From Nonlabens ponticola (GTDB lineage Bacteria; Bacteroidota; Bacteroidia; Flavobacteriales; Flavobacteriaceae), in assembly GCF_003966335.1 (NCBI RefSeq), contig NZ_CP034549.1:1830001-1862000 (forward strand): a stretch of 32,000 bases of DNA. Direction: 5' to 3'. Made by a program: the position numbers and the translations under genes. The notes beneath the pieces were generated by a model. The model worked only from the letters and a program-made list of their open reading frames with translations. It made no database searches and had not been told where the DNA came from. Shown here one piece after another: positions 1,268-32,000 of the stretch (positions are counted from its first letter, which is position 1; the number at the start of each line of letters is the position of its first letter).

Positions 1268-2550
1268 TGCAATCTTCTATATACATCGTTTGCTATTACT
1301 GGCCACCGGCTGGCGGACCTGGCGTGCAGCGATGGTTGACAATGTCTCATTATTTAGTTGAATCTAATTACCACGTCACCGTCGTGATTCCAGAAAATGC
1401 TGATTACCCAGTCACAGATGCAAGCCTGACCAATGACATAAATCCAAAAATCACCATCAAAAAAATTGCCATCAAGGAACCAACCCGATGGATAAAAAAG
1501 ATTCTAGGTGGTAAGACTGCACAGCTACAAAAAGGTATCTTAAATAAAAAACCTGGACTGCTGGAACGCGCATTACTTTGGGTGCGTGGTAATTATTTTA
1601 TTCCAGATGCTCGTAAATCATGGGCTGATAGAGTAGTGCAGGAGCTAGAAAATGATTCTGCTTTCGCGAAAGCAAAAACTCTCATAACGACTGGACCACC
1701 ACATTCTGTACATCTCGTAGGATTGAAATTAAAAAAGAGGTTTACTAAAAACATCGAGTGGATCGCGGACTTTAGGGATCCATGGACTACCATAGGCTAT
1801 CACGACAAATTGCGATTATCGCTAAATGCTCAAGAAAAACACTTAAAACTTGAAAAGCAAGTGCTAGACAGCGCAGATAAATTGCTGGTAACAAGTCCTA
1901 CAACAAGAGCAGAATTTGAAGCCAAAACCAAAACAGCAATAACTGTCATCACCAATGGCTTCAACATAGAACCTAACAATACATCACAACCAGCTGGAAA
2001 GTTCACGTTGAGCCACATAGGTACGCTACTCGCAGATCGCAATCCTATTCATTTATGGATAACGCTTGCAGAACTTATAGAGATCAGAGAAGACTTTGCT
2101 GCAGATTTTAAATTACAATTGGCAGGAAATGTAGGTGACGACATTATTAACAGTCTAAAAGAATGTCAATTACTTAATTACACAAACCTTAAAGGATACT
2201 TATCGCATCAAGAAGCGGTCAATGCGATGTACAACTCACAAGCATTATTGTTAATCGAGATTGATAGTGCAGATACCCAGGCGATCATTCCTGGAAAATT
2301 ATTTGAATATATCGCAAGCCGCAGACCAGTCATAGCAATCGGGCCAGAGCAATCAGATATTATTCAAATATTGTATGAAAGTAATGCAGGAACGTATTTT
2401 AAATACCGCGACCCACATTTATCGCGACACATCCTAGAACTTTATCAAGCTTACAAAAAGAATGAGTTACTAGGAAATCATCAGGAGATCAATAATTACC
2501 ATCGCTCAAACTTAACCGATCAATTGATCAAAATTATCCAGAAGCGCTAA
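1267..2550 (+). CDS. Glycosyltransferase, GT-B fold (family 4-like)
   Basis: 427-aa ORF. The N-terminus (YIVCYYWPPAGGPGVQRW) and the C-terminal half (PGKLFEYIASRRPVIAIGP) fit GT4/GT-B enzymes. Its ATG overlaps the upstream TGA by 1 nt (cTGATGc), which indicates translational coupling. Confidence 0.75.
   Translation: MQSSIYIVCYYWPPAGGPGVQRWLTMSHYLVESNYHVTVVIPENADYPVTDASLTNDINPKITIKKIAIKEPTRWIKKILGGKTAQLQKGILNKKPGLLERALLWVRGNYFIPDARKSWADRVVQELENDSAFAKAKTLITTGPPHSVHLVGLKLKKRFTKNIEWIADFRDPWTTIGYHDKLRLSLNAQEKHLKLEKQVLDSADKLLVTSPTTRAEFEAKTKTAITVITNGFNIEPNNTSQPAGKFTLSHIGTLLADRNPIHLWITLAELIEIREDFAADFKLQLAGNVGDDIINSLKECQLLNYTNLKGYLSHQEAVNAMYNSQALLLIEIDSADTQAIIPGKLFEYIASRRPVIAIGPEQSDIIQILYESNAGTYFKYRDPHLSRHILELYQAYKKNELLGNHQEINNYHRSNLTDQLIKIIQKR
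1659..1674. repeat. Iterated palindrome copy 1: TGCTTTCGCGAAAGCA (perfect 16-mer; 14-nt core 1660-1673)
   Basis: Read directly. It lies inside the GT4 CDS in frame GCT TTC GCG AAA GCA = AFAKA. Confidence 0.95.
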
Positions 2551-4019
2551 TGGGAATGGTCATTAAACATAGCAGTTGGAATCTGGTTATTACCGCAATT
2601 GGTTTTGTGTTGGGTGCCGTGAACGTTCTACTACTTGCGACAACCTATCTAAATGACAATTACTACGGTTTATGGGGTTACGTGCTATCTACCTCATTTT
2701 TAATTTTCCCGTTGATGTCCTTTGGGATTCATAATACGATTGTCAAATTTTATAGTTCGTATAAAACCAAAGAGGAGCGTGATAATTTTCTTTCTCAAAT
2801 GCTATTGTGGCCATTAGTAGCCCTCACGTTTATCATTGGATTGATCTACATCTATCAGACCGATCTAAGGCTATTTATCTCATCACGTAATCAAATCTCT
2901 GGTGACTATTTGTGGGCAATAGTTCTGGTAGCAGTTTTTCAAGCCTATTTTGAAATATGGTACAGCTGGACCAAAGTTCACTACAAAACCATAGGAGGTA
3001 ATTTTCTCAAAGAGGTTTTCTATCGCGCTGCCGCAACTGTAATGCTTTGCCTGGTGGCACTAGACATAATCACTCAAACGCAGTTTATCTATAGCCTGGT
3101 TCTCATCTATTTTTTGCGCATGTTACTAATGGCCATCGTTGCCTTGAGAGTTTATACTCCGGTTTTTGAGATAAAAAAACTTGTTGCCGTGCGAGAGCTG
3201 GTTTACTACTCTGTGTTGATGATTATTGCTGGGTCAGTGGCGACAGCTTTGCTCGATCTGGATAAAACGATGATCAATCAATACATTGACATCGCCAATA
3301 TCGCTTACTACAATGTTCCTGTTTTCATGGCGACCGTGGTGGCGATTCCGTCGCGTGGTATGGCGCAGATAATCCACCCATTGACAGCACGCTTTTTCAA
3401 TGGCAATCAGCTAGATGAAGTTGAGAATTTGTATAAACGCAGTTCTTTGAATCTCACGATTATTGCTGGACTATTGCTGTTACTTGTTTTGTGTAACGCA
3501 TCACAATTCTATCTTTTTCTGCCGCCAGAATTTGCGGTTGCTTTACCGGTATTATTTTTCATTTGCATCGTGAAGTTTACTGAGAATGTGCTGGGCAGCA
3601 ACAACGCGATACTCTACAGCACAAATCTTTATCAGGTCACATTGTGGCTAGGCCTTGCACTTGCTGTGGTGGCATGGCTCCTCAACATGTGGCTGATACC
3701 GTTGTATGGTTTGACGGGTGCTGCGATAGCTACCTGTGTGGCTTATGTGTGTTACGCTTTCGCGAAAGCGGTATACGTAAAAATAAAACTCAACATGCAT
3801 CCATGGACTAGGGAAACGACCGTCGTCTTGCTAGTGGTCGTCGTACTATTAGTTGCGTTTTATTTCTGGGATTTTCCTTTTGACAAATACACCAACATCC
3901 TATTGAAGTCAACGCTTATATCTTTATTGTACATAGCGAGTGTATACAGATTGAAGTTATCTAGCGAGATCAATGATCTAGTTCATAAAGGCATAGAAAA
4001 AATAAAGCGTCGACCATAA
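2550..4019 (+). CDS. Polysaccharide/oligosaccharide flippase (MOP/Wzx-like polysaccharide biosynthesis protein)
   Basis: 489-aa protein that is hydrophobic throughout, with about 12-14 predicted TM helices. Its start overlaps the GT4 stop (TAATG). It sits in a glycan-locus context. Confidence 0.7.
   Translation: MGMVIKHSSWNLVITAIGFVLGAVNVLLLATTYLNDNYYGLWGYVLSTSFLIFPLMSFGIHNTIVKFYSSYKTKEERDNFLSQMLLWPLVALTFIIGLIYIYQTDLRLFISSRNQISGDYLWAIVLVAVFQAYFEIWYSWTKVHYKTIGGNFLKEVFYRAAATVMLCLVALDIITQTQFIYSLVLIYFLRMLLMAIVALRVYTPVFEIKKLVAVRELVYYSVLMIIAGSVATALLDLDKTMINQYIDIANIAYYNVPVFMATVVAIPSRGMAQIIHPLTARFFNGNQLDEVENLYKRSSLNLTIIAGLLLLLVLCNASQFYLFLPPEFAVALPVLFFICIVKFTENVLGSNNAILYSTNLYQVTLWLGLALAVVAWLLNMWLIPLYGLTGAAIATCVAYVCYAFAKAVYVKIKLNMHPWTRETTVVLLVVVVLLVAFYFWDFPFDKYTNILLKSTLISLLYIASVYRLKLSSEINDLVHKGIEKIKRRP
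3754..3771. repeat. Iterated palindrome copy 2: aCGCTTTCGCGAAAGCGg
   Basis: Read directly. It lies inside the flippase CDS and is read as AFAKA. Confidence 0.95.
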
Positions 4020-4055: not shown

Positions 4056-5528
4056 TTATCCTCTTCTGGATGATCTACCAGATGATCTTTTACTGCTTGA
4101 TCCACGGCTGCTTCTAGCTTTGGATTGTGATCTTTTAGGTGCGCTCGTTCTTGCTTTTGAAGAAGAACGACTAGGTGCGCTTGATCTTGCCTTAGACTGT
4201 GATCTTTTAGGCGTGCTAGTTCTTGCACTTGATCTATTAGATCTTTTGGGTGCAGTCGTTCTAGCTCTTGAGCCACGATTGCTTGAGGTGCGTGCACTTG
4301 ATCCTCTATTATCAGATCGTGAAGTTCTCGCACTGCTCTTGCGATCAGATCTTTGAGATCTTTGTGTCGTAGTTCCACGTGAACCTCTTGAAGCAGTTCT
4401 TGAGTCTCTAGTTATTGCTTTTCTATTGCCTGCAGTAGATCGTGAACTGCGTCCAGCGCTACTTCTTGCATTATCTGAAGTTCTAGAATTTCCTCTAGTG
4501 CTTACACCACTACGATTAGAGTTTCCTCTGGCAGTTCTTGTACCCACCTTGTTCTGGGTACTTCTACCTCTAGAACTAGTCGCTCTATTATTAGAACTTC
4601 TACCAGTAGATCGATTGTTGATACTGCGACCATTGCGATCATTACCAGTTATCTTTCTACCATTATTAGAGCGAGAAGCAAGACCACTTGATCTACCATT
4701 GCGAGATTGACTCGCACGTCTGCCTACATTGTCATTACTGCGTCTCAAGGATTTTCTACCACTAGCATACGCGTTGCGAGTATCAATCGCTCTACGACCG
4801 GTCGCGATAGCACGACCTCGATTGTTCCTGCGACCTCTCTCATAATCTCTATAGACTACTCGATCATAAGGTCTGTAAAAAGTTCTATAGGCTCTATTGG
4901 AAACAAAGCATCCATTATAATAGGTAGGAGAATTCCAGTAGGTTCTATGATAGTTCCATGAAAATCTAATAGGGTTATAGAATCTTCTATAAGGCGTGTT
5001 ATATACTATCACACGATCCACTATCGGCGCTGCATAAAACCTGTGCCATGGTCTGAAAGTGTAGAACCTATTAAAGTTATTGATATAACCACGATAGTTC
5101 AATATCACACCAGGACGCGCATAGTTTACATAAAGATTACCAATGTTGTGTACGTATCCATTGCGGTAATTGATTATCACATTACCAGCCTGAATGATAC
5201 GACCATATTCATCATAGTAAATAGGCGTATTCTCGATCTGGATCACGGCACCATAGGTGTCGTACTGTACAAATCTATTGTAATCAAAACCTGTATTGAA
5301 AGATATATTGACGTTACCAAGATTTGCATTGACGCCAAACTGTGGTCCATAGTCTAGGAAATTGAAATCAAATTGTCCATCAGGGAAAACGGCAAACTCA
5401 ATTCCACCTTCATTAAAAATAAAATTGTCTGTGTAACCGCGGTAGCGATCTACATCTTCAGACTTCTCGGCGTGTGCCAGTCCCAATCCTAGGAACAGCA
5501 TCACAAAAACTGCGGAGAGATTTTTCAT
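4056..5528 (-). CDS. Secreted hypothetical protein: Tyr/Asn/Phe/Arg-rich N-domain plus a roughly 250-aa Arg/Ser-rich low-complexity C-terminal tail
   Basis: 490-aa ORF with a clear signal peptide (MKNLSAVFVMLFLGLGLAHA/EK). Residues from about 232 to 490 consist almost only of R, S, N, T, G, K and A. The tail ends in repeated ARTS(A/T)PKRSQSKARSS units. I recognise no family. Confidence 0.7.
   Translation of the reverse strand: MKNLSAVFVMLFLGLGLAHAEKSEDVDRYRGYTDNFIFNEGGIEFAVFPDGQFDFNFLDYGPQFGVNANLGNVNISFNTGFDYNRFVQYDTYGAVIQIENTPIYYDEYGRIIQAGNVIINYRNGYVHNIGNLYVNYARPGVILNYRGYINNFNRFYTFRPWHRFYAAPIVDRVIVYNTPYRRFYNPIRFSWNYHRTYWNSPTYYNGCFVSNRAYRTFYRPYDRVVYRDYERGRRNNRGRAIATGRRAIDTRNAYASGRKSLRRSNDNVGRRASQSRNGRSSGLASRSNNGRKITGNDRNGRSINNRSTGRSSNNRATSSRGRSTQNKVGTRTARGNSNRSGVSTRGNSRTSDNARSSAGRSSRSTAGNRKAITRDSRTASRGSRGTTTQRSQRSDRKSSARTSRSDNRGSSARTSSNRGSRARTTAPKRSNRSSARTSTPKRSQSKARSSAPSRSSSKARTSAPKRSQSKARSSRGSSSKRSSGRSSRRG
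4059..4343 (-). repeat. In-frame coding tandem-like repeats (period about 70 nt) in the RS-rich tail
   Basis: tgtgatcttttaggtgcgctcgttcttgc (about 4127) recurs as tgtgatcttttaggcgtgctagttcttgc (about 4197). At protein level this gives ARTSTPKRSQSKARSS ... ARTSAPKRSQSKARSS. Confidence 0.7.
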
Positions 5529-8544: not shown

Positions 8545-9093
8545 TTAGTTGAGTATATCTTGTTTAAGAGTTTGATCGTGATTGCTGGGCTCGTTATAAG
8601 CTCCAAAATGTTTGATGAGTGCGCTTTCGCGAAAGCGGAATATTTCTTCTAGCTTGGGTTTTACTAGAAATGGCTGTACCATTTTACCTAGAAATCCCAG
8701 CGGTAATCTGTAATGTACCACATCTTCCATAAGCGTGCCGCCTGGAATCTCGCTCACAAAATGTTTGTGGTGCCAGGTCGCGTATGGTCCATACATCTGC
8801 TCATCGACAAAGAATTTCTTCTCCTCAACCTGTGTGATGTGTGTGACCCAATTAGTCTTGAAAAAGGGTAGTGGCTTGACGCTGTACTCAATGAGCTGGC
8901 CTGGATACATGCCGCGCTCTGTACCGTAGAGTACGGTCATTTCCATTTCTGGTGGCGTGAGCAGTTTGAGGTTGTTGGGATCTGTCAAAAACTCCCAAGC
9001 CTCGTCTAGTGAGATAGGTAGTTTTTGTTTGGTGTGTATTTGGTAGAGTTTCAAGCTGTTTTTGTTTGAACTATAAAGATATAGGCCATACAA
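8545..9093 (-). CDS. SRPBCC-superfamily (START/polyketide cyclase-like) protein
   Basis: 182 aa. The sequence LPISLDEAWEFLTDPNNLKLLTPP... and the overall length fit small ligand-binding SRPBCC proteins. Its stop lies 2 nt upstream of the SDR start. The true start may be downstream of 9093, for example a TTG at LKLYQIH. It contains one copy of the palindrome, read as RFRES. Confidence 0.6.
   Translation of the reverse strand: MYGLYLYSSNKNSLKLYQIHTKQKLPISLDEAWEFLTDPNNLKLLTPPEMEMTVLYGTERGMYPGQLIEYSVKPLPFFKTNWVTHITQVEEKKFFVDEQMYGPYATWHHKHFVSEIPGGTLMEDVVHYRLPLGFLGKMVQPFLVKPKLEEIFRFRESALIKHFGAYNEPSNHDQTLKQDILN
8622..8637. repeat. Iterated palindrome copy 3: CGCTTTCGCGAAAGCG
   Basis: Read directly. 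It lies inside the minus-strand SRPBCC CDS and is read as RFRES. Confidence 0.95.
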
Positions 9094-9119: not shown

Positions 9120-9836
9120 TTAGAAATCGTCCTTGCGCAACTCACCGTTTGAGTAACGCTTGCCTAAGGAGAATTTGACACCAAAGGATACTATAAAATT
9201 GCTCAAATTGTACTCAACCAACTCACGAGCGACTTGTGGTTGTGAGCTAACGGCCGGTCCAAGAATATTATACTCTAGTGGCGATCCTATTGTTGTCACG
9301 TATTGTGGTGAGAAAAAAACCTGCACGCTGCGACGGAAGTAATAATTAAACCGGACTCCAGCATCAAAAATTGTAGATACAGACGTTATGCTTTGATTTT
9401 CATTTGTGTAAAAGATTTCATTATTCCCATTGAGAAAGGTTCCTCTTCTGGTATCTAGAAAACCAATACCAGTCCTGCCATAAACATCAATTTGAAATCG
9501 ATTATAAGTCTTACTACCCAAAACTCCAGCGGTAAGAGCATATAAAGTCTCATTTTTTGGGATTCCCGTGCCTGAATTTTCAAAAGCAGTCTCATTATAT
9601 AGGTGTTTTACAGCCGCCGTAAATGCAAATCGCTTGTTGAAGTAATAATCGTAACTACCTGCAATAGAGAGTCCGCTCAAGGCGATGTTGCCATAATCAC
9701 CTATAGGCAACGCGACACCTGTTTCCACCATTAAATTATATCTAGGCACTTCTCGCAAATGCACGGGAATACTGTCATTGGACTGCTGTGCGCATAGCAG
9801 GCACGGTAAAACGAGTAATAGGATCAAGTACCTCAT
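9120..9836 (-). CDS. Outer-membrane beta-barrel protein (porin/OmpA-barrel-like)
   Basis: 238 aa with a signal peptide (MRYLILLLVLPCLLCAQQ). It has alternating aromatic/Gly-rich beta-strand patterning and a terminal Phe (…RKDDF). Confidence 0.65.
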   Translation of the reverse strand: MRYLILLLVLPCLLCAQQSNDSIPVHLREVPRYNLMVETGVALPIGDYGNIALSGLSIAGSYDYYFNKRFAFTAAVKHLYNETAFENSGTGIPKNETLYALTAGVLGSKTYNRFQIDVYGRTGIGFLDTRRGTFLNGNNEIFYTNENQSITSVSTIFDAGVRFNYYFRRSVQVFFSPQYVTTIGSPLEYNILGPAVSSQPQVARELVEYNLSNFIVSFGVKFSLGKRYSNGELRKDDF

Positions 9837-9895: not shown

Positions 9896-9913
9896 ACGCT
9901 TTCGCGAAAGCGG
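9896..9913. repeat. Iterated palindrome copy 4: aCGCTTTCGCGAAAGCGg (the only intergenic copy)
   Basis: Read directly. It lies between the divergent OMP gene (start 9836) and csbD (start 9952). Confidence 0.95.
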
Positions 9914-15900: not shown

Positions 15901-17975
15901 TCTTTAATAAGGTTCTAGAATTAAAGGAATTGCGCCGTATGATCTATCAAGAAGTGCAAGACGACAGCGGCGTCATATCAGGATCTTTCTTAAGTACGCA
16001 GCTCAATGAATCTTATACGAGTATGATTGGATATTTCCCATTCTCGCAATTTACTAGATCAACCATGTTTGACAAGGCAGCCGTTGCCGTGCCATCGACA
16101 ATGTATAACATAAAAAAGATACAACCACAAACGGCACCATTACCTTATGTGACAGCACAAAATGGCGATTTGAGTCTGGATGCTACCTATACACATCCAG
16201 ATGTATGGGATGCAGATGATATCGCAAATACCGACTTTACCATTGTTCATGTAAAACATAACGTTACACAAATTCTTGACTATAACATGGTAGGCTTGAA
16301 AGTGGACGCTGGCAAGACCGTTACTGTTGCCACAGACAAACTGCTAGCAAACAGCTATCAACTTATACTAGATGGTACCATCGATCTACAGGATGATGCA
16401 CAACTCATTCAAGAAGAGGAAAGTGTATTGATCGCTGGAGCAAGCGGTGGACTTAAAAGAAGACAAGAAGGCACGGCAGATGTTCATTCCTATAACTACT
16501 GGAGCTCTCCTGTCACGACTCATAATTTAGGTGCTTCAAATGCCTCATTTAGATTAAGTCAATTAAAGGATGGCAGTGATTATGTAAACTTTACACCTGC
16601 TGAAACACCATCATTCACCATACCGGCAACCGTAAGCTCAGACTGGTTGTATACTATGTTCAATGGTACAGGTTACGCAGACTGGACCAGAGTTGATCCT
16701 GCTACCACTGATATTCGTCCAGGACTCGGTTGGACACAAAAAGGTCCCAACGCGCCTAGTGCCTTACATCAATTCACTTTTGAAGGTGTACCTAACAACG
16801 GCACGATATTAATACCTGCCATTGATGCAGATGGTGATCCACTTGTTAATGAGACCATTTCTGTTTTGGGTAATCCTTATCCATCTGCTATTGATTTACA
16901 CAAGTTTATCGATGATAATACGGTTCCTGGCAGTGAGGTAATTGATGGAACTATTTTTCTATGGCAGCAATTTAAAGGTACAGATCATATCCTTGCTAAT
17001 TATGAAGGTGGTTATGCCACGGTAACTAAACTAGGCGTTCTCAAAGCCACTCAATACGATGGCTTGGGAGCTCTTGATGCGTTAAATCTGAGTGAGCTTC
17101 TTGCCTTTGCTCCTAAAAGATACCTACCGGTGGCACAAGGATTTCTAGTGAATGTAGTAGCAGACGGTAACATCGAGTTCAACAATTCGCAACGATACTT
17201 TGCCACAGAATCTAGTGGTGGCTCCGTATTCTTTAACGCTCCAGGTAGCGGCTTGCCACAGGAAGATCGCACACCTTATCAAAACACAGAAATACCTCTC
17301 ATTAGGTTAGGTTTTGAATCGGAAAAAGGAGCAAATCGTGAATTCTATATTGGATTCAGCGAGACGTTCACAAATGGTCGTGACTATGGTTATGATGCAG
17401 TTACAAACCTTGCTGGTAGTGGATCAGACATGGTTTTGCAAGGATTTGACGAGCAGTATCTCAACATGGCAGCATTGCCTATGATTACTGGCGCAACAGC
17501 CATAGGAATTACCGTAAGAGGTGAAATAAATACCGATTACAGTATCAACGCCATACAGCTTCAAAATATTGATGAGAGCCAACCTGTTTACCTCCATGAT
17601 GCGACCTTGGGGATTTATCACGACTTGCGCTCTGGAGAGTACCTATATCAAATGGCTACGGCTGGAAAGGATGAGAATAGATTTGCCCTGGTGTTTTCGA
17701 ACTCCACATTGTCCAACGATGATATTTCAAGCCAGCAAACACTTAGTCTATTCTATAGCAACAATCGTCAGGAATTGAAACTCGTTGATCCAACTGGTTC
17801 TGCTAGCGAGGTTGTTGTTTATGACCTGTTGGGTAAGGAACTATTACGCTTTCGCGAAAGCGGAATAACTAATCTCCTCAACGGTTATTCAATGCCAATG
17901 GTAGCATCAGGTATCTACTTAGCCGAAATAATTGCTGATTCTAAGACAATTAGCACTAAATTTATCATTAACTAA
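12942..17975 (+). CDS. Giant T9SS-secreted surface protein: GEVED-like domain, thrombospondin type-3-like Ca-binding repeats, LamG/ConA-like domain, unknown C-module, T9SS C-terminal sorting domain
   Basis: 1677 aa.
- N-terminus: hydrophobic signal-like stretch ILSFSAFFAFFASHAQ. The start may instead be the Met at 12984.
- GEVED-like domain: SIYIDWNNDGDFVDAGE...RVEVEDYSINV.
- At least four D-x-D-x-DG-x-x-D-x-x-D-x-D-x-D-N-DG repeats, for example DTDGDGVTDNIDIDDDNDGI and DTDGDGVPNHLDLDSDNDGL.
- LamG signature: DFDGRNDYV...FDGAIDEVRLFNKVL.
- C-terminus: VVVYDLLGKE...GIYLAEIIADSKTISTKFIIN, typical of type A Por/T9SS sorting domains. Confidence 0.85.
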   Translation: MMKTILKISRLASSMSFYRGFNDFSFLKKIKTSKRQTILSFSAFFAFFASHAQCTVRDTGSQDAADEIYFKRVQIGSIDNDQTTATPFTVIAPFGYQDYSALSTDIARGTTLSFNFETGSDSSNLQTASRFSIYIDWNNDGDFVDAGEIIYRTQTLFDTFFSFDYGIPSNASVGLKRVRVKTAYDWNASNPCLESWESRVEVEDYSINVVKPAFDTTVLSNALVIDNNDITPTGSDNTNFGSFDLNSGEVQNTFTIFNNGANTVELANSKPSRIQLIGDAQFRVVTQPPIKTLLSGQSTTFVIGYDPTAIETNNAVVSIQTSDPIKNPYTFHITGEGKQTFPDTDGDGVTDNIDIDDDNDGIVDATEQSSCVFVPSSTVVEREFLNETFGTGTTTVRINDNNPNVTTTYFFEDNTNSQAADENDTDANLNDGEYTVGPSAQITTWAPAYWHMGKDHTSGDSNGRMAIFNASIDPGEFYKTKIDGVIANVPVTYSFWVLNIDRVDAPGIDTRLRPRIRVEFTDESGNAIIDQADPGTSTTLLTGDIAPTIVTTEEGSWQQFTRTFTPTVSTFTVTFINDQLGGLGNDVALDDIVITQQLCDLDRDGVADVIDIDSDNDGIPNVIEIGRPAGLVGVVDADRDGTTYNSNNLGSAEWIDLNGNGMHDAYESHTPADTDGDGVPNHLDLDSDNDGLLDVLENDGFGDLDVDADGMGEGTDADDKDSTTDSDGDGFLTGNNFSDFDTNDADNDIYGFLDHGTGTYNLPIDTDVDGIPDFLDIDSNDPLNDLSNGSDIDDSYYRNQDLNNDGKVDGTEDVDKDGVIDTTNDYDTVLFGAPINLSDDYTIDFDGRNDYVQSSAPLSAGLQDYTLMAWVMLDPSYSGTRTVFNDSGIELSVMNDRKVNIASKLTSSTVLLTSNTSLDPGKWHHISVTFSAGNEVKIFLNGLEDASRTATSGSLRIDVSEPFTIGAKASSGTVSKFFDGAIDEVRLFNKVLELKELRRMIYQEVQDDSGVISGSFLSTQLNESYTSMIGYFPFSQFTRSTMFDKAAVAVPSTMYNIKKIQPQTAPLPYVTAQNGDLSLDATYTHPDVWDADDIANTDFTIVHVKHNVTQILDYNMVGLKVDAGKTVTVATDKLLANSYQLILDGTIDLQDDAQLIQEEESVLIAGASGGLKRRQEGTADVHSYNYWSSPVTTHNLGASNASFRLSQLKDGSDYVNFTPAETPSFTIPATVSSDWLYTMFNGTGYADWTRVDPATTDIRPGLGWTQKGPNAPSALHQFTFEGVPNNGTILIPAIDADGDPLVNETISVLGNPYPSAIDLHKFIDDNTVPGSEVIDGTIFLWQQFKGTDHILANYEGGYATVTKLGVLKATQYDGLGALDALNLSELLAFAPKRYLPVAQGFLVNVVADGNIEFNNSQRYFATESSGGSVFFNAPGSGLPQEDRTPYQNTEIPLIRLGFESEKGANREFYIGFSETFTNGRDYGYDAVTNLAGSGSDMVLQGFDEQYLNMAALPMITGATAIGITVRGEINTDYSINAIQLQNIDESQPVYLHDATLGIYHDLRSGEYLYQMATAGKDENRFALVFSNSTLSNDDISSQQTLSLFYSNNRQELKLVDPTGSASEVVVYDLLGKELLRFRESGITNLLNGYSMPMVASGIYLAEIIADSKTISTKFIIN
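17846..17863. repeat. Iterated palindrome copy 5: aCGCTTTCGCGAAAGCGg
   Basis: Read directly. It lies inside the T9SS sorting-domain coding region of the 1677-aa gene and is read as RFRES(G). Confidence 0.95.
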
Positions 17976-18001: not shown

Positions 18002-21000
18002 ATGAAGAAAACTCTACTCTCAATTGCAGTAGCCATTACTGCAATGCAAGGAATTCAAGCACAGCAGTTTGAAGTTGATGCAGATGAATGGAAAGTCACT
18101 AAGATCACCAACTTACAATCGCCAGACGGTAATCAAATTGTAAATAATGCCAATGAAATTACTGAAGGTCCCGACGGCTGGCTATGGATTACAGAGCGTC
18201 AAGTACTAACGACTGCGCAAGGTGGTACTGACAACGGCGCGAGCGTCGTACGTATCAATCCTGATACAGGTGAGAAGGAAATAATGCTGGATTTGCGATC
18301 AAAGGTGTTTTCAAACGCTGGCCAAGATGGTCTCATGGGTATGGCTATCCATCCAAGTCTGTACACCAACAATCCTACTGATCCTTATGTATATCTAGCA
18401 TACACCTATGAAGCAAATGCAGCAACTGATATCTATACGGTAAGTGGTCTTAGAGAATTGCGTATCGAGCGCTACACATATCGTCCAGGAAGCGATGATC
18501 TAGATCCCGATTCTGGCTTTACCTTGATAGATAAGCTTGCCGGTAGTAATGATCACAGTAGCGCGCGCATGAAGATAGGGCCAGACGGTATGCTGTATTT
18601 TACTAGTGGTGATTTGGGTTACAATCAATTTAAGAATAAGTGCGTGGTCATACAATCACAATCACTGCCTACACAACAAGAAGTCAATAATAAGGAGTGG
18701 AGAGATTATAAGGGAAAAATCCTGCGCATGACACTTACCGGTGGCATTCCAGCAGATAATCCTACTTTCCTACCGCACGATGTACTTAGCGATGATGGAG
18801 TTACAGTAGATAATACGAACTATACATTTTCTGATCAAAGCGCCAGCGGCACTCGAGTGCGTAGTCATATATATAGTTATGGACATAGAAATGCTCAAGG
18901 AATCATTTTTGCTGCTGATGGTACGCTCTATAGCAGTGAGCACGGTGATCGGGTAGATGATGAAGTAAACATTATTACTGCTGGTGGTAATTACGGCTGG
19001 CCGTTCATTGTTGGTGATCGTGATGGTATTGGGTTCACGCATTGTAAAAAACAATCGCTGTGCGCCACGAATTCTACTTATGCGGGAAATGGTAATAATG
19101 ATTGTTCTTTTGACGGTGATAGTGCAGATGTTTACCCTGAATTGGATCAAGCACGGCCTAGTGATCTTGTAGATCCTATAGCAAATTATAATTCTAATAA
19201 TGGCGAGAATCCACCAGGAGGTTTTAGAACTTGGCCTACCATTGCACCATCAAGCATTGATATTTATGAAGGCAATGGTGATATACCATGGAATAAAAGC
19301 ATCTTGATTCCATCACTCAAATCAGGAACAATTTATCGTTATGAGCTTAATGCAGCTGGTGATGGTATCGTTGGTGGTGGTACTACAAATGGTTTGATTT
19401 CATTTCACGCGACGGTAGATAGATATCGGGATATCGCTATGAGCGCTGACGGCAAGACTATCTACGCCATAACGGATAGCAAGGGTCAAACCAGTGGTCC
19501 ATCAGGAACAGATGGTTTGCCAATTGAAAATCCTGGTGCTATTTTCAAATTTGAATATATCAAGAAACCCAGTATTTATATAAGTGAGGTAACTAATCCT
19601 AGTGATGATAGAGAAGGTGTTTTTGTTGAGATCTATAACTACGGTGATCAGGACGTGGACCTCGCTGAAACTGGCGTCGTTCTAGGTCGTCAACGCAGCG
19701 GTGATAATACTAATCAAGAAGAGCTAGCACTTACAGGCACGGTTGCGCCTGGACAGTATTTCGTAGTGGGTCGTGATGGCTTCAATGCCATTTATGGTCA
19801 AGCACCAGATTTGGTAGCTAGTGACGATTTGTTAGGTGGTGATGGCGACGATCCCTATGCGTTAGTGTATCAAAACAGCTTTAATTCTTTAGCCTATGTA
19901 GCCCTTGATTCCTATGGTAATTTAGATCAAGATGGAGCAGGTCAGGATTGGGACTTTAGCAATAATAGAAGGATTAGTCGCAAGCGATCCCAGAATTCTA
20001 GAGCAGCCGTATTTGATCTGGCACAATGGAATAGGAGTGACACTGGTAGTTTGACAACTGATGCTACACCATTTGAACCAGATCCATTGACATTTATATA
20101 TGCCAGCAACGCGATTACACCGCAATCTCCTGTGAACTTAACGACTCGATTTGATAATTTAATTGTTCAGGATGGCTCATATCGTTTGCCGCAAAATCTA
20201 ACATTTAAAAATGTTACGGTAGACAATGGTGCGACTCTAGATCTGGACGATTCAATAATTGACGTGGCTGGTAATCTAACGATCAATGGCGCGATCAATG
20301 ACAGTAACGGCACCATGCGATTGACTGTCGATGGTGCGCACAGCATCAATGGTTCTGCAGCTTCTATTCATAATTTAGAAACGAATGCAGCTGTTACTAT
20401 AAATGCCGATGTGAGTGTTACCAATATTTTGACTGCCGCATCTGGCCAGATTGATATTACCTCGGGCAACAAGATTATTCTTAAAAGTACTGCTGCTGGA
20501 ACGGCCTATGTAGATCAGGTTCCTAGCGGTGTTACTATCAATGGAGATGTTCAGGTAGAACGATTTATACCGGGTAAACGGGCTTTTAGATTTATTAGCT
20601 CTCCAGTGACCACGACATCCAGTATCTATGAGAACTGGCAGGAAAGCGGGTCAGTGGTCTCAGGTCAAGGAACGCATATAACAGGTGACGCAAGCGGTGC
20701 AAATGGCTTTGACGCAACAGCCACTGGTAATCCTAGTTTATATAGTTTTGACAATACAGCCAGTAACTGGACCGCAGTTACAAGTACAAATTCTGCAACT
20801 GATGTGCTTGTCGCGGGAAAACCGTATAGATTGTTTGTACGCGGTGATAGAACTGTAGATCTGAGTAATAATGAGGCAACGGCGACTGCAACGACTTTGA
20901 GAATGACGGGAGAACTTGTCACACAGCAAGTAAACCAAACTAACTTGAGTCAAAATGCTGGCGACTTTAATATGATAGGTAATCCATACCAGGCTCCAGT

Positions 21001-21961
21001 TGATTTATCTCAGGTTATTGCCGCTTCCACCAATGTGAGTCAGACTGATATTTATATGTGGGATCCTACTATCAACGAGCGTGGTGCTTATGTAAATCTA
21101 TTATTGGATACAAATACAAATACCGTTGATGGATCAGCAATTAATAAATTCTTACAGCCTAATACAGCATTCTTTATAACGACCAGCAATGATGGTAGTG
21201 CTAGTATCGCTTTCGCGGAAGCTAACAAAAATACTGCTCAAGAGACACTAGATGTTTACAGCATACCATCGATGGTACGAGTATCGCTATATCCTGAAAA
21301 TGAAATAGATGGAGAAACCGCACTTGACGGAACCATTGCTATTTTCAAGGAAGACTATAGCGCGCTAGCTACAAATGAAGATGCTGCCAAGTTTATGAAT
21401 CTAGACGAGAGTATTTACACTATTGTCAACGATACAAAGCTGAGTGTAAATCGTCTTCCTAGCATAGAGAACAATGACAAGATCGAGATAGGATTAAATC
21501 ATCTGCGCAGTGATCGCTACAGATTATCTATAGATGCCACACGGTATGATAAAGATCTATTCCTATATGATGCTGTGACTGATAATTATACGCCATTATC
21601 CAAATCGGAAAAAAGCTGGTATGCTTTTGACAAAAATGAAGATGATAACGACGCAGTAAATCGCTTTACCATTGTCTCAACTCAAAGCACGCTTTCTAAT
21701 AGTGATTTTGAGTCACTCGACTTAACAGTGTATCCTAACCCAACTTCAGGCAAATTGTTTATTAGCGCTACAAGCCTATCCGGATTGACCACCATAAGTC
21801 TCACTAATTTGTTAGGTCAAGAAGTTTATAGCCATGAGATTACTGCCGTTGCAAACCAATCTATAGAAGTCCATTTACCAGCTAATATCAACACAGGTAA
21901 TTTCATTCTTAAAGTGGTAAATGATGGACAAATAATGACAGAGAAAATCATTATCCAATAA
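18002..21961 (+). CDS. Giant T9SS-secreted protein: PQQ-dependent sugar (glucose/sorbosone) dehydrogenase-like beta-propeller + lamin-tail domain (LTD) + unknown C-module + T9SS sorting domain
   Basis: 1319 aa with signal peptide MKKTLLSIAVAITAMQGIQAQ.
- Propeller motifs: GLMGMAIHP, GHRNAQGIIF, SEHGDRVDDEVNIITAGGNYGWP.
- LTD-like: IYISEVTNPSDDREGVFVEIYNYGDQDVDL.
- C-terminus: TVYPNPTSGKLFISA...NFILKVVNDGQIMTEKIIIQ, a T9SS CTD.
It starts 26 nt after the previous gene. Confidence 0.85.
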   Translation: MKKTLLSIAVAITAMQGIQAQQFEVDADEWKVTKITNLQSPDGNQIVNNANEITEGPDGWLWITERQVLTTAQGGTDNGASVVRINPDTGEKEIMLDLRSKVFSNAGQDGLMGMAIHPSLYTNNPTDPYVYLAYTYEANAATDIYTVSGLRELRIERYTYRPGSDDLDPDSGFTLIDKLAGSNDHSSARMKIGPDGMLYFTSGDLGYNQFKNKCVVIQSQSLPTQQEVNNKEWRDYKGKILRMTLTGGIPADNPTFLPHDVLSDDGVTVDNTNYTFSDQSASGTRVRSHIYSYGHRNAQGIIFAADGTLYSSEHGDRVDDEVNIITAGGNYGWPFIVGDRDGIGFTHCKKQSLCATNSTYAGNGNNDCSFDGDSADVYPELDQARPSDLVDPIANYNSNNGENPPGGFRTWPTIAPSSIDIYEGNGDIPWNKSILIPSLKSGTIYRYELNAAGDGIVGGGTTNGLISFHATVDRYRDIAMSADGKTIYAITDSKGQTSGPSGTDGLPIENPGAIFKFEYIKKPSIYISEVTNPSDDREGVFVEIYNYGDQDVDLAETGVVLGRQRSGDNTNQEELALTGTVAPGQYFVVGRDGFNAIYGQAPDLVASDDLLGGDGDDPYALVYQNSFNSLAYVALDSYGNLDQDGAGQDWDFSNNRRISRKRSQNSRAAVFDLAQWNRSDTGSLTTDATPFEPDPLTFIYASNAITPQSPVNLTTRFDNLIVQDGSYRLPQNLTFKNVTVDNGATLDLDDSIIDVAGNLTINGAINDSNGTMRLTVDGAHSINGSAASIHNLETNAAVTINADVSVTNILTAASGQIDITSGNKIILKSTAAGTAYVDQVPSGVTINGDVQVERFIPGKRAFRFISSPVTTTSSIYENWQESGSVVSGQGTHITGDASGANGFDATATGNPSLYSFDNTASNWTAVTSTNSATDVLVAGKPYRLFVRGDRTVDLSNNEATATATTLRMTGELVTQQVNQTNLSQNAGDFNMIGNPYQAPVDLSQVIAASTNVSQTDIYMWDPTINERGAYVNLLLDTNTNTVDGSAINKFLQPNTAFFITTSNDGSASIAFAEANKNTAQETLDVYSIPSMVRVSLYPENEIDGETALDGTIAIFKEDYSALATNEDAAKFMNLDESIYTIVNDTKLSVNRLPSIENNDKIEIGLNHLRSDRYRLSIDATRYDKDLFLYDAVTDNYTPLSKSEKSWYAFDKNEDDNDAVNRFTIVSTQSTLSNSDFESLDLTVYPNPTSGKLFISATSLSGLTTISLTNLLGQEVYSHEITAVANQSIEVHLPANINTGNFILKVVNDGQIMTEKIIIQ
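21208..21222. repeat. Iterated palindrome copy 6, degenerate: CGCTTTCGCGgAAGC (one A>G change at 21218)
   Basis: Read directly. It lies inside the 1319-aa gene and is read as AFAEA. Confidence 0.8.
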
Positions 21962-22653: not shown

Positions 22654-24048
22654 ATGACACTCATAAAATCTATTTCAGGAATACGTGGCACCATAGGCGG
22701 CAGGCCATCAGACAATTTAACGCCCTTAGACGCCGTCAAATTTGCCAGCGCGTATGGTAAATGGATTAAAGAAGCTTCAGGTAAAAAATCACCTGTCGTA
22801 GTTATAGGTCGCGATGCGCGTATAAGTGGTGCTATGATACAGTCCTTAGTTCAAAATACTCTCATAGGAATGGGTTGCAATGTCGTAGATCTAGGTTTGA
22901 GCACCACACCAACTGTAGAAATAGCCGTACCAGCAGAGAAAGCCGATGGTGGCATTATCTTGACTGCGAGCCATAATCCTAAACAGTGGAACGCTCTCAA
23001 ATTACTGAATAATAAAGGTGAGTTTCTTGATGGAGTAGAAGGTCAAAAAATTCTGGATGCAGCTGCTGCAGAAGATTTTGAATATGCAGAAGTCGATGAT
23101 CTAGGAACCGTAAGTGAGCGAGATGATTACATTGACATACATATCCAACAAGTTCTTGACCTCAAAGAAGTTGAAGTTGAGGCTATTAAAAGTGCTGGAT
23201 TTAAAGTAGTCGTAGACGGCGTTAATTCCACAGGTGGTATCGCTGTTCCAGCTTTGTGTAAAGCATTGGGCGTTGAGGTCATTGAGTTGTATTGCGATCC
23301 TACCGGACATTTCCCGCATAATCCAGAACCGCTCAAGGAACATTTGGGTGATTTATGTAAAGCGGTTGTTGAGCACGAGGCTGACTTTGGCATCACTGTC
23401 GATCCAGACGTTGACCGACTTGCATTTATTACCGAAGAAGGCGAGATGTTTGGTGAAGAATATACCTTGGTAGCGTGCGCCGATTTTATCTTGTCTCGTG
23501 TAAAAGGAAACACTGTAAGCAACCTATCATCCTCAAGAGCCTTACACGATGTTACCGTCAAACATGGCGGCACCTATACGGCTGCGGCTGTAGGTGAGGT
23601 GAATGTGGTTAAAAAAATGAAAGAAGTAAATGCGGTTATAGGAGGCGAAGGTAACGGTGGTATCATTTATCCAGACTCACACTATGGTCGAGATGCGTTG
23701 GTAGGAATAGCGCTATTCATGTCGTTACTTACTGAGAAGAAAGTTAAAGTAAGTGAATTACGCGCCAGCTACCCAAGCTATTTCATGGGTAAGAAAAAAG
23801 TTCAACTAACACCAGGAATGCCCGTGGATGCCATTCTTGAAGATGTAAAGCAACAGTATTTAAATGAAAATTTGACTACTATTGATGGTGTCAAGATTGA
23901 CTTTGAAAATGAATGGGTGCACTTGCGCAAATCAAACACAGAGCCTATAATCAGGATCTATACTGAAGCAAGATCACAGGAACAAGCTAACCAACTCGCT
24001 GACCGCTTCATTGCGGAACTCGAGGTGATAGCTCAACAGCACGCGTAG
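22654..24048 (+). CDS. glmM: Phosphoglucosamine mutase (Bacteroidota type)
   Basis: The preferred start at 22654 gives MTLIKSISGIRGTIGG. It has the phosphoserine loop ILTASHNPKQWNALK and the metal loop ITVDPDVDR. The ORF-track start at 22600 is a spurious upstream extension. Confidence 0.9.
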   Translation: MTLIKSISGIRGTIGGRPSDNLTPLDAVKFASAYGKWIKEASGKKSPVVVIGRDARISGAMIQSLVQNTLIGMGCNVVDLGLSTTPTVEIAVPAEKADGGIILTASHNPKQWNALKLLNNKGEFLDGVEGQKILDAAAAEDFEYAEVDDLGTVSERDDYIDIHIQQVLDLKEVEVEAIKSAGFKVVVDGVNSTGGIAVPALCKALGVEVIELYCDPTGHFPHNPEPLKEHLGDLCKAVVEHEADFGITVDPDVDRLAFITEEGEMFGEEYTLVACADFILSRVKGNTVSNLSSSRALHDVTVKHGGTYTAAAVGEVNVVKKMKEVNAVIGGEGNGGIIYPDSHYGRDALVGIALFMSLLTEKKVKVSELRASYPSYFMGKKKVQLTPGMPVDAILEDVKQQYLNENLTTIDGVKIDFENEWVHLRKSNTEPIIRIYTEARSQEQANQLADRFIAELEVIAQQHA

Positions 24049-24919
24049 CATCCTTGAGAGAAGTTTTCCAACGCTTGTGCGACCACAAGTAATATTCTGG
24101 CTGGCGTTTGATTTGGTCTTCTAACAATTCAAAGAAACAATCGGTTACCATCCAGTCGACTTCTTTTGAAGCATCATCAGTGATTTTTTCAAAAGTAGCA
24201 TGATAAAAACCACGTTTTAGTTTCTTTACTCTCAAGAAGAAAACTGGCATCCCATATTGTTTTGCCATGCGCTCACCACCCTTAAGTACCGCAGTAGTTC
24301 TTTCAAAAAACTGTGTAAAATACTGTGCTTTATAAGGTTTAGGTGCTTGATCTGCCACCAGCGCGTACAGTCCAGTAACGCTCTTTTGGCTTTGTCTAAT
24401 CAAGTTGTAGGCTTTCTTCATAGGTAAGAGAGTAGTGCCAAATTTTGATCTCACTTCTCTTATTAATTTGTCAAAATAAGGATTCTTGATCGGTTTGTAA
24501 ACCGCATAGGATTGGTGTTCTAGAGCCTCGTCCAGAGCGATGGTCCATTCATAACTAGCCTGGTGCCCTAGCATGATGACTACTGGTTGTTCCGCTTTCG
24601 CGAAAGCGTTAACAACATCAACATTATCACAGGTAAAGCGCTTTTCAACTTGGGTCTTGCTTATACCCAATGATTTAATAATCTCTATAAAATTGTCGCA
24701 AAAGTGCTGCATGCTTTCACGTGCGATCCTTTTTTTCTCCTGATAAGACTTTTCTGGGAAAGCAATATCTAGATTATTCATGATCACCTTCTTACGATAT
24801 CTTGTTAGGTAATAAACAATGACAAAAACCAGATCGCTAATGCGATACAGCAACCAAAAAGGCAAGCGAGCCAGCACCCAAATGAACGGGTAAACAAGAT
24901 AAAATACAAAGGCTTGCAT
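24008..24919 (-). CDS. LpxL/HtrB-family lipid A (lysophospholipid) acyltransferase
   Basis: 303 aa. It has an N-terminal TM anchor, an HX4(D/E)-type motif (MLGHQASYEW), and PEYYLWSHKRWK near the C-terminus, all typical of this family. Its 3' end overlaps the glmM 3' end by 41 nt. Confidence 0.75.
   Translation of the reverse strand: MQAFVFYLVYPFIWVLARLPFWLLYRISDLVFVIVYYLTRYRKKVIMNNLDIAFPEKSYQEKKRIARESMQHFCDNFIEIIKSLGISKTQVEKRFTCDNVDVVNAFAKAEQPVVIMLGHQASYEWTIALDEALEHQSYAVYKPIKNPYFDKLIREVRSKFGTTLLPMKKAYNLIRQSQKSVTGLYALVADQAPKPYKAQYFTQFFERTTAVLKGGERMAKQYGMPVFFLRVKKLKRGFYHATFEKITDDASKEVDWMVTDCFFELLEDQIKRQPEYYLWSHKRWKTSLKDATRAVELSPRVPQ
24592..24609. repeat. Iterated palindrome copy 7: cCGCTTTCGCGAAAGCGt (reverse complement = aCGC...GCGg)
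   Basis: Read directly. It lies inside the minus-strand acyltransferase CDS and is read as AFAKA. Confidence 0.95.
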
Positions 24920-30387: not shown

Positions 30388-30415
30388 AGAAATTTATTGA
30401 TCGCATAAACTTACC

Positions 30416-32000
30416 ATGAATTCTTATTACATGAATAAAAATCCTCTTATTTTTTTGATAGCCGTATTTATCATTTCTAGCTGTGCTAGCTACAAAGCTC
30501 AATATAAAGAAGGTGAAGAAAGTTTTAAGCCGTCGATCAATGACGATGATATCGTCAAATCATTTTATCTCATAGGCGATGTAGGCAAATCTCCCATAGG
30601 TGGTAAGAGTGATGGACTGCTCGCACTCGAGGCATACATGAAAGGAAAGGATACTAAAAATGACCACCTAATTTTTTTGGGTGACAATATTTACCCTACG
30701 GGTATGCCCAAAAAGGATACTGAATTTAGACCCATTGCCGAAAATCATCTAGATGCTCAGATAGCAGTTGCTAAACAATTTGAAGGGAAAACCATTTTCA
30801 TTCCAGGTAATCATGATTATTACGACGAGAACCTAGACAATGTAGAGCGAGAAAAAAAATATATAGAAGAAGCTCTAGATAACAAAGACGTCTGGAGTCC
30901 CAAAGTAGGCTGTCCCATTGATAGCCGTGAGATTTCAAAAGACATTCAATTGATTATCGTTGATAGTCAATGGTATCTGGCCAAATGGGATGAAATTCCT
31001 ACTATCAATGACAACTGTGATCAAATTAAAACTAGAGAGCAGTTTTTCCTTGAAATAGAAAGTGAACTCAAGAAAAACCAGGGTAAGACTATACTCATCA
31101 CAACGCACCACCCAATATTTACTAATGGTATCCACGGCGGTCAATATGCTGCCATTAAGCACCTTTATCCTACACAAAACAACATACCTATTCCTGTATT
31201 GGGATCACTTACCAGCCTTATACGTACTAGTGGTGGCGTGAGTGCACAAGACAAGCAAAACAAGCGATACCAGAGCTATGCAGATCGTATGACATCGCTT
31301 ATTGTAGCATCAGGTGCACCACGTGTGATGCTAGCCAGCGGTCATGAACATACCTTGCAGTATATTGTAAATGAAGGAGTTAGACAAATAGTATCTGGAT
31401 CTGGAGCAAAGAAAAGCTATGTAGCTCTTAGTGACGATGGGCTATTTGCATACGGTGGAAAGGGCTTTGCAAAAATGGATGTTCTCAAGGATGGCAGTTC
31501 TACCGTTACCTATTACGGTTTTGAGAACGGTACCTACAAAAGCCTTTATAGTAAAAATGCCATTGATGCGCCACCAGTGTTTGATATGAGTAGCTTGCCT
31601 GATAGTATTCCCGCTTTCGCGAAAGCTAACATATACAACGATGATCGCACCGATAAGTCTAAGTTTTATGAAGGTTTCTGGGGTGAGAAGTATCGTGAAC
31701 TGTACAATACTGATATTAATGCACATGTGGCATTGCTTGATACATTAAAAGGAGGCTTGAGTGTGGTTAGACCAGGTGGTGGACACCAGACACGTAGCTT
31801 GAGACTCGTCGATAAAGATGGTAAAGAATATAATTTAAGGGCTCTCAAAAAAAGTGCCGTACAATTTTTACAAACCACGGTATTCAAAGACAAAAACGTT
31901 GCCGATGGTTTTGATGACACCACTGCCGAGGATTTACTTTTTGATTTTTACACAGCAGCACATCCATATGGAGCACTGGTCATTCCCACATTAGCTGATG
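30416..32000 (+). CDS. Calcineurin-like metallophosphoesterase lipoprotein, N-terminal about 528 aa (continues past the window); absent from the supplied ORF track
   Basis: I translated by hand in the frame starting at 30416 (or at the second ATG, 30431) and checked it line by line from about 30780 to base 32000; no stop was seen anywhere in the frame. It begins MNSYYMNKNPLIFLIAVFIISSCAS (lipobox). Phosphoesterase motifs: YLIGDVG, LIFLGDNIYP, FIPGNHDYY, ITTHHP, ASGHEHTLQY. Confidence 0.85.
   Translation, partial: MNSYYMNKNPLIFLIAVFIISSCASYKAQYKEGEESFKPSINDDDIVKSFYLIGDVGKSPIGGKSDGLLALEAYMKGKDTKNDHLIFLGDNIYPTGMPKKDTEFRPIAENHLDAQIAVAKQFEGKTIFIPGNHDYYDENLDNVEREKKYIEEALDNKDVWSPKVGCPIDSREISKDIQLIIVDSQWYLAKWDEIPTINDNCDQIKTREQFFLEIESELKKNQGKTILITTHHPIFTNGIHGGQYAAIKHLYPTQNNIPIPVLGSLTSLIRTSGGVSAQDKQNKRYQSYADRMTSLIVASGAPRVMLASGHEHTLQYIVNEGVRQIVSGSGAKKSYVALSDDGLFAYGGKGFAKMDVLKDGSSTVTYYGFENGTYKSLYSKNAIDAPPVFDMSSLPDSIPAFAKANIYNDDRTDKSKFYEGFWGEKYRELYNTDINAHVALLDTLKGGLSVVRPGGGHQTRSLRLVDKDGKEYNLRALKKSAVQFLQTTVFKDKNVADGFDDTTAEDLLFDFYTAAHPYGALVIPTLAD
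31612..31626. repeat. Iterated palindrome copy 8: CGCTTTCGCGAAAGC (14-nt core 31613-31626)
   Basis: Read directly. It lies inside the metallophosphoesterase CDS and is read as AFAKA. Confidence 0.95.

Follow-up and report, generated by a model that had tools for sequence, protein, structure and literature searches.

Why should one exact palindrome be written again and again into unrelated genes of a single bacterial chromosome? The question is raised by 32,000 nucleotides of Nonlabens ponticola DNA (contig NZ_CP034549.1, positions 1,830,001 to 1,862,000), referred to here as the window, in which the 14-mer GCTTTCGCGAAAGC occurs exactly at seven positions and once more with a single mismatch, as GCTTTCGCGGAAGC (Table 1). 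An initial annotation of this DNA had listed all eight copies. A search of the window recovered the seven exact ones where they had been placed; the mismatched copy is real but starts at 21209, not at 21208 as first given. The answer developed here is that the palindrome is a DNA word made by substitution and retained across related species, and that its copies may form a genome-wide signal comparable to HIP1 of cyanobacteria and to the DNA uptake sequences (DUS) and uptake signal sequences (USS) of other bacteria.

An Exact Palindrome in Excess

The excess of the motif in the window is far beyond chance, as had been claimed. Apart from the eight copies, the window holds no further site with two or fewer mismatches to GCTTTCGCGAAAGC, and 100 dinucleotide-preserving shuffles gave a mean of 0.14 such sites and a maximum of 1, against the seven exact and one mismatched copies observed. 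By base composition, about 6e-5 exact copies would be expected; the density found is one copy per 4.6 kb. The previously reported counts of five for the 16-mer CGCTTTCGCGAAAGCG and four for the 18-mer ACGCTTTCGCGAAAGCGG were reproduced, and all window occurrences of the 8-nucleotide half GCGAAAGC fall inside the eight sites. Beyond about 6 nucleotides, the flanks of the window copies show no relatedness to one another. The centre of the palindrome, TCGCGA, had been likened to a restriction site of a kind that is normally avoided. Outside the motif this hexamer is present 6 times in the window against about 4.6 by a composition-based estimate, so TCGCGA alone is neither avoided nor enriched.

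Nor is the motif confined to the window. The 16-mer was scanned against one genome per species for 185,579 species, and the figures that follow are among the matches listed, which make up 120 blocks of 8 kb. Roughly 105 to 109 of these blocks come from Nonlabens, Dokdonia or other Flavobacteriaceae assemblies, scattered over many contigs and over distant coordinates of single chromosomes; a complete Dokdonia chromosome, for instance, has the 16-mer at 0.88, 1.38, 2.15 and 2.82 Mb. The remaining blocks hold single matches in unrelated, often GC-rich taxa, as chance predicts. Because blocks were picked for holding a copy, only additional copies were counted for density and the first in each block was left out, which gives about 1 per 9 kb in Dokdonia blocks and about 1 per 13 kb in Nonlabens blocks. 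Three syntenic Nonlabens loci, retrieved through a gene and not through the motif, carry 4 to 5 copies per 21 kb, and a Leeuwenhoekiella contig, also retrieved through a gene, has two exact copies in 20 kb. The Mesonia and Antarcticibacterium loci (about 21 kb each) contain zero motif copies and no other over-represented word. Together, the scan distribution, the corrected densities and the gene-retrieved loci identify a genome-wide, clade-restricted element with an estimated few hundred copies per genome. Its presence in Nonlabens, Dokdonia and Leeuwenhoekiella and its absence from the Mesonia and Antarcticibacterium samples match the way in which DUS and USS are shared.

Two blocks labelled 'uncultured Aquimarina sp.' (L045 and L070) contain conserved orthologous copies at a G+C content of 0.37 to 0.41, which is above expectation for Aquimarina; the label may be wrong, or the range of the motif may be wider than the three genera named above. 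Viral contigs hold the 16-mer in only 40 stretches among 2.9 million contigs. One phage-like contig, IMGVR_UViG_3300040781_000495 (L140, L157 and L160; G+C 0.42 to 0.48), encodes a terminase, portal, head protease, major head, tail sheath and baseplate hub and has the motif six times in 28 kb, in part within structural genes, the portal and terminase genes included.

Origin by Substitution and Conservation of Sites

The initial annotation had offered Rickettsia palindromic elements (RPEs), which are in-frame insertions, as one analogy, and had proposed that orthologs be aligned to tell insertion from substitution. The alignments reveal substitutions and no gaps, and the analogy fails. The acyltransferase of the window (24008-24919) matches, at 100% identity, an N. 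ponticola protein encoded on a 2.87-Mb contig. An alignment of 24 acyltransferase proteins is without a gap at the site of the copy, which reads NAFAKA or NAFAEA in ten Nonlabens sequences, NDYAAV, NQFADK, HQFRDQ or NDLRAQ in others, and KALEKE, VNFEKQ and further peptides in other genera. Codon alignments are also gap-free at the DNA level, with CAATTTAGAGATCA in place of the copy in N. ulvanivorans and unrelated codons there in other genera. A second site, in the gene for a GAF protein, displays intermediate states: GAAATGGCTAAGAA (encoding EMAKK) in the window, GCTTTTGCAAAAAA (AFAKK) in locus L162, GCTTCCGCGAAAGC (ASAKA) in L161 from Nonlabens sp. YIK11, and the exact GCTTTCGCGAAAGC (AFAKA) in L163 from N. 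ulvanivorans. The gap-free alignments and these intermediates show that every copy is the product of point substitutions at positions where protein or spacer could accept them, and not of insertion; accumulation by point substitution is also the manner of DUS and USS.

From one Nonlabens species to another, copies have stayed exact at orthologous positions, and Dokdonia and Leeuwenhoekiella have the motif as well. Of the four Nonlabens species compared, all have an exact copy in the Metallophos-domain gene and three in the acyltransferase gene. The SRPBCC and intergenic copies are common to the window and strain YIK11. The copy in the C-terminal region of a type IX secretion system (T9SS) cargo gene is shared with N. 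ulvanivorans, where it lies (L163:17367) at a distance from the stop codon similar to that of the window copy at 17848. All of this is seen in genes whose DNA identity is only 50 to 75%. Independent orthologous pairs among the scanned blocks, an ascertainment-biased set, contain exact motifs within flanks that are 64 to 80% identical and rich in indels. Turnover is also present, in the form of gains, losses and decayed copies. Conservation of sites beyond that of their flanks, a characteristic of HIP1, is found here in a small unbiased sample.

What has been conserved is a DNA word, rather than a peptide or simply a stem. Long open reading frames (ORFs) hold about 70% of 190 copies, and about 29% are non-coding, a share roughly three times expectation if the typical non-coding fraction is estimated at about 10%. 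All three frames are used among 134 coding copies (76, 28 and 30). In the window, the seven copies within genes read AFAKA four times, AFAEA once and RFRES twice, as originally described; the further statement that the LSRK frame is never used is true of the window and false of relatives, where about 30 of the 134 coding copies use it. Among long ORFs, the codon string of the motif encodes 87 of 91 AFAKA peptides, for which 256 synonymous strings are possible, and 35 of 36 RFRES peptides, which means that the DNA word is kept and not the peptide. A peptide or domain repeat is ruled out by this single codon string, the use of three frames and the non-coding copies. The earlier view that the host genes share no protein domain is likewise upheld, the seven window genes being unrelated and on both strands. 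The non-coding copies are found between tandem, divergent and convergent genes, many of them 0 to 20 nucleotides past a stop codon. Some intergenic copies (L031:4358, L093:4835, L114:560 and L092:2673) stand 10 to 20 nucleotides beyond a classical terminator-like hairpin and T-run, and there the motif adjoins terminators yet is distinct from them.

Anatomy of the Dyad

Position frequencies were taken from a pooled set of about 190 to 200 copies. The consensus, sharpest in the non-coding copies, is the 20-bp perfect palindrome TACGCTTTCGCGAAAGCGTA. On its left side, position ±8 is C (G on the right) in 86% of pooled copies, position ±9 is A or C in 41% and 28%, and position ±10 is T in 71%. The window 18-mer had been described as asymmetric, with a strand bias to be followed up; in the pooled set this reduces to an A/C degeneracy at ±9, with ACGC..GCGT in 35, AC..GG in 31 and CC..GG in 17 of 189 copies.

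The word is also strict, with 204 exact, 19 one-off and 16 two-off copies, and among 12-nucleotide palindromes in this DNA it has 206 occurrences, the runner-up 5. The commonest one-off variant, A to G at +3 (GCTTTCGCGGAAGC), is found at unrelated sites in different genomes (window 21209, L161:6631, L054:2862 and L092:6360) and could be a tolerated dialect or a mutational hotspot. Isolated halves number 23 in about 0.88 Mb, and all but one are decayed full sites; the search for them found no split half-sites, target duplications or interrupted copies. With no interrupted copies found, the motif was also ruled out as the target of an insertion sequence. Two close pairs were seen in non-coding DNA, one at L099:5295 and 5383 (88 bp apart) and one at L088:7816 and 7883 (67 bp apart). 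The members of the latter are identical two-mismatch variants, GCTTTCGCGAAATT, and could reflect a local duplication or a composite site.

The word is able to form a stem of 8 bp closed by a 4-nucleotide loop, with a stability of -6.3 kcal/mol as DNA and -7.3 kcal/mol as RNA. No Rfam match was found in the window, and palindrome-restoring (compensatory) changes are present in 0 of 16 double variants. The modest hairpin, the lack of compensatory variants and the lack of an Rfam family together indicate that the unit is a sequence-specific dyad and not a generic stem; the last two observations also set it apart from structured RNA families. The hairpin reading put forward in the initial annotation is weak and gains no support. 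On either strand, the 14-mer ends 3' in the eight nucleotides GCGAAAGC, the sequence of a nuclease-resistant DNA mini-hairpin reported by Hirao and colleagues to be 'extraordinarily stable'. The likeness goes no further than this, and the 8-mer has no predicted stability under standard nearest-neighbour DNA parameters.

Strand-Skewed Flanks

Outside the dyad, each copy is framed by flanks of skewed composition. The 5' flank of each strand is depleted of C and enriched in T and G over about 25 to 30 nucleotides, and symmetry makes the 3' flank poor in G and rich in A and C. Against a background of about C 0.19, T 0.31 and G 0.19, the 5' flank has C 0.065, T 0.47 and G 0.245 at 2 to 10 nucleotides from the edge of the 14-mer; C is then 0.092 at 10 to 20 nucleotides, 0.127 at 20 to 30 and at background at 30 to 40. 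The skew is mirror-symmetric, is also found around non-coding copies, is similar at all three codon positions and is equal upstream and downstream of the sense strand. It is visible in the window alone and in the syntenic loci, and it is absent around chance matches in other phyla. This occurrence around non-coding copies, at all codon positions and in the motif's own loci points to a property of the DNA that alters some ten codons to either side of every copy, and offers a clear example of local protein composition being dictated by a DNA-level signal. Together with the 20-bp extended consensus, the mirror-symmetric skew is an addition to what had been noted before.

The T/G-rich codons upstream specify hydrophobic residues and the A/C-rich codons downstream specify polar ones, and as a result many copies are placed at signal-peptide ends (...LLLFMTAFAKAQS...). 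Copies in the AFAKA frame at such ends, where a hydrophobic run is followed by AFA|KA and polar residues, were seen, for example, at L024:1302, L014:4854, L057:1666, L066:6346 and L045:7054. Beyond ±9, complementarity between the two flanks of a copy does not exceed that between flanks of different copies, so the skew is not a hidden longer stem, and a longer palindromic element within the flanks is ruled out on the same ground. Seen geometrically, the strand running 5' to 3' into the centre has C down and T up, and A down and G up, on both sides, the outcome to be expected if strands whose 3' ends lie at the dyad centre were repeatedly exposed or resynthesised. Counted from that centre, positions -9, -15 and -21 admit C more readily than the rest of the 5' flank, a 6-nucleotide spacing that appears in the pooled copies and weakly in the non-coding ones.

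Table 1. Copies of the palindrome in the 32-kb window of Nonlabens ponticola
Position	Form	Location	Frame	Copies in related loci
1660..1673	Exact 14-mer	Within GT4 glycosyltransferase gene (1267-2550, +)	AFAKA	
3756..3769	Exact 18-mer ACGC..GCGG	Within flippase-like membrane protein gene (2550-4019, +)	AFAKA	
8623..8636	Exact 16-mer	Within SRPBCC gene (8545-9093, -)	RFRES	Matching site kept in Nonlabens sp. YIK11 (L161:16599)
9898..9911	Exact 18-mer	Intergenic, upstream of outer-membrane beta-barrel gene (9120-9836, -)		Equivalent intergenic copy in L161 (15318)
17848..17861	Exact 18-mer	C-terminal T9SS sorting region of 1677-aa cargo gene (12942-17975, +)	RFRES	
21209..21222	One mismatch, GCTTTCGCGGAAGC (A to G at +3)	1319-aa T9SS cargo gene (18002-21961, +)	AFAEA	
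24594..24607	Exact 18-mer on - strand	Lipid A acyltransferase gene (24008-24919, -)	AFAKA	Kept in L161 and L162
31613..31626	Exact copy	Metallophos-domain gene (+) extending past window end	AFAKA	Kept at L161:3189, L162:3286 and L163:3296

A further feature of the window is a 490-aa ORF (4056-5528, - strand) that has a signal-like N-terminal segment, a middle rich in Y, N and R, and a tail of about 250 residues made almost wholly of R, S, N, G and T in RSS/RGS repeats, an unusual low-complexity basic protein.

What the Palindrome May Be For

That over-representation implies selection or drive at the DNA level, and that HIP1 and DUS form the right class for comparison, had both been suggested, and both suggestions have gained support. 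We favour, tentatively, the explanation that the copies constitute a lineage-specific genome-wide DNA signal of the HIP1/DUS class, made up of the 20-bp dyad and about 25 nucleotides of skewed flank on each side. The word would be read as a dyad by a sequence-specific partner, the simplest candidate being a homodimeric DNA-binding protein whose footprint, or tracking along the strand, would reach to about ±26 bp. Copy number would be sustained by weak positive selection or molecular drive on every copy, and the flanks may record the extended footprint or a mode of DNA processing.

As to what such a signal would do, it is possible by analogy that it serves as a self-DNA tag for DNA uptake, homologous recombination or both, a role favoured by the precedents of DUS and USS, HIP1 and competence in Riemerella. 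HIP1 is conserved and under selection (PMC5861425) and, when methylated, is reported to boost natural transformation (bioRxiv 10.1101/2024.09.10.611283; 10.64898/2026.06.24.733823). Natural competence occurs in some Flavobacteriaceae, and in Riemerella columbina it comes with a preference for the bacterium's own DNA, for which no uptake sequence has yet been identified (PMC7965970). A bolder version, about which we are more doubtful, would make the palindrome the first signal in Bacteroidota for sequence-specific recognition of self-DNA: a strict 20-bp dyad with a dimeric receptor or nuclease as its reader, the C-depleted 5' flanks being the trace of processing into single strands that end 3' at the centre. 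Such a signal, if real, would open a way into natural gene exchange among abundant marine flavobacteria and supply a second, independent system for testing ideas about HIP1.

Several points weigh against a signal of this class. We know of no binding protein, methylase or competence phenotype in Nonlabens or Dokdonia. Known uptake sequences are 9 to 12 nucleotides long, are not palindromic and occur about once per kb, and the present motif is 4 to 13 times sparser. On one strand C is almost uniformly missing from about 18 nucleotides in a row, a pattern that resembles single-strand readout or a mutational scar more closely than the groove contacts made by a dimer on duplex DNA. The six copies in 28 kb of the phage-like contig are not obviously predicted by uptake drive. 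Finally, the evidence for conservation comes in part from loci ascertained by the motif, and the unbiased syntenic set is small.

Alternatively, and less probably, the dyad may be an architectural or topological site, bound with high affinity by a nucleoid-associated protein, condensin loader, occlusion factor or DNA gyrase that organises the chromosome. E. coli has about 300 to 600 gyrase-binding repetitive extragenic palindromic (REP) or bacterial interspersed mosaic (BIME) elements, and the few hundred copies estimated per genome here are dispersed along chromosomes. The dyad symmetry, the footprint of about 50 bp and a conservation that is independent of coding frame also suit this explanation, as does the periodicity of HIP1 with the nucleoid-structure hypothesis attached to it (PMC5861425). 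However, the exact copies exceed the one-off copies by at least 5:1, and the TTTC..GAAA spacing is, in our own comparison, unlike that of parS and the Noc-binding sites (NBS). The sites parS, NBS, SBS (SlmA-binding sites) and matS number tens, not hundreds, and tolerate degeneracy. A parS/Noc-type site was considered and is disfavoured by its different half-site spacing and by a copy number here that is too high.

It is unlikely, if still worth weighing, that the word is a by-product of a sequence-biased nuclease or of methylase-linked repair, which would convert near-cognate sites to the exact word and leave the flank skew (C-to-T, A-to-G) as a mutational scar; the word might then have no cellular function. 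The centre does hold CGCG and TCGCGA, typical methylase or endonuclease targets, and recurrent cutting or nicking there would expose or resynthesise the strand running 5' to 3' into it. The skew fits either cleavage at the centre with 3' tails or gap filling towards it, in that both transitions fall on the same strand and decay smoothly over about 30 nucleotides. Non-synonymous positions are skewed as strongly as synonymous ones, and the phage-like contig has the motif at a host-like density, both points in favour of a by-product. A by-product does not, however, readily account for sites that are kept at orthologous positions over deep divergence without free turnover. One-off variants with CpG transitions exist, so there is no obvious very-short-patch correction, and no known repair system reads 14 to 20 bp. 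Bacterial resection tracts are kilobases long and not 30 nucleotides, and the ortholog flank comparison covers three sites, too few for directionality.

An element acting as an RNA or single-strand hairpin, whether it stabilises mRNA 3' ends, signals pausing or attenuation, or silences antisense transcripts as a Rho-entry signal working in both directions, is improbable. It would draw on the possible 8-bp stem, the many non-coding copies just past stop codons, a 3' flank low in G and high in C, like that of rut sites, whichever strand is transcribed, and a self-complementary pattern that makes the RNA of either strand alike. Against this stand the modest stability of -6 to -7 kcal/mol, the loss of pairing in every double variant, with no families of covarying stems, and the missing Rfam match. 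In addition, flank complementarity does not exceed the expectation from composition, the skew is equal up- and downstream of the sense strand, and copies are found whether the neighbouring genes are tandem, divergent or convergent. Downstream, the flank is rich in A and poor in T, the opposite polarity to that of an intrinsic terminator, and with so modest a hairpin the motif was rejected as a bidirectional terminator of that type.

A miniature mobile element inserted in frame, in the manner of RPEs, REP sequences and their paired form (REPINs) or miniature inverted-repeat transposable elements (MITEs), can hardly be the answer: the motif is palindromic, highly repeated and in frame in unrelated genes, and a TAC/GTA tag beside the stem is reminiscent of GTAG-tagged REPs, but this is contradicted by the gap-free alignment of motif-lacking orthologs, the intermediate substitution states at the GAF-protein site, flanks that are alike in composition and not in sequence and are not complementary, the intragenic position of about 70% of copies, and the lack of split half-sites and target duplications.

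Comparison with Known Systems

Iterated words shared by a whole lineage are rare, and hidden biology has come to light with each one so far: DUS and USS revealed uptake specificity, Chi revealed the control of recombination, and HIP1, debated for 30 years, is now beginning to be linked to transformation. With an example from another phylum that is independent and far longer and stricter, those ideas can be tested by comparison. The palindrome is a ready bait for finding its partner protein, may explain or improve the poor genetic tractability of marine Flavobacteriaceae, and can serve as a compositional marker when contigs from metagenomes and phages are assigned to these hosts; it might also help phage host prediction. 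The initial annotation knew of no described element with this sequence and, in agreement, no published description of this palindrome, or of any iterated palindrome in Flavobacteria, was found in the literature searched.

The behaviour of the motif is closest to that of HIP1 and of DUS and USS. Like HIP1, it is an exact palindrome hugely over-represented across a lineage, in coding DNA (in several frames) and non-coding DNA, made by substitution and conserved at orthologous sites in a way that implies selection (PMC5861425), and its CG-containing centre is of a methylase-readable kind. The HIP1 sequence itself (GCGATCGC, cyanobacteria) is unrelated to it, as is the phylum. The present motif is 14 to 20 bp long against 8 bp for HIP1, occurs about once per 4 to 13 kb against up to more than once per gene, and is enriched about 1e5-fold against 15- to 300-fold. 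Cognate methylases, DmtA and DmtC, are known for HIP1 and none is known here, and we have not seen a strand-skewed flank of 25 to 30 nucleotides reported for HIP1.

With DUS and USS the motif shares a family-restricted word that is common to related genera, accumulates by point mutation in tolerant frames and spacers, and has more exact than one-off copies. The flanks of USS are also compositionally biased, being AT-rich. The motif differs in being a strict dyad, where DUS and USS are shorter, denser and non-palindromic. DUS and USS have a demonstrated uptake bias and, in Neisseria, the receptor ComP. As its sequence and phylum differ from those of HIP1 and no cognate methylase or uptake bias is known for it, the motif is a strict member of neither class.

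REP and BIME elements (with REPINs and RAYT transposases) are also short palindromes with a conserved tag beside the stem, hundreds of copies and some positions just past stop codons. They are, however, extragenic, imperfect, mobile insertions that are often paired, whereas the present copies are about 70% intragenic, exact, substitution-born and solitary, and showed no spread by insertion, in that length does not change relative to orthologs (no RAYT search was made). RPEs, also palindromic repeats in frame inside unrelated protein genes, are insertions of 100 to 150 bp that add a peptide segment; here the alignments are gap-free, length is unchanged and the flanks are not complementary. Three features distinguish the Nonlabens palindrome from HIP1, DUS and USS, REP and REPIN elements, RPEs, terminators and structured RNAs alike: an exact word of 14 to 20 bp with about 1e5-fold enrichment, an obligate dyad, and a mirror-symmetric skew extending over 25 to 30 nucleotides.

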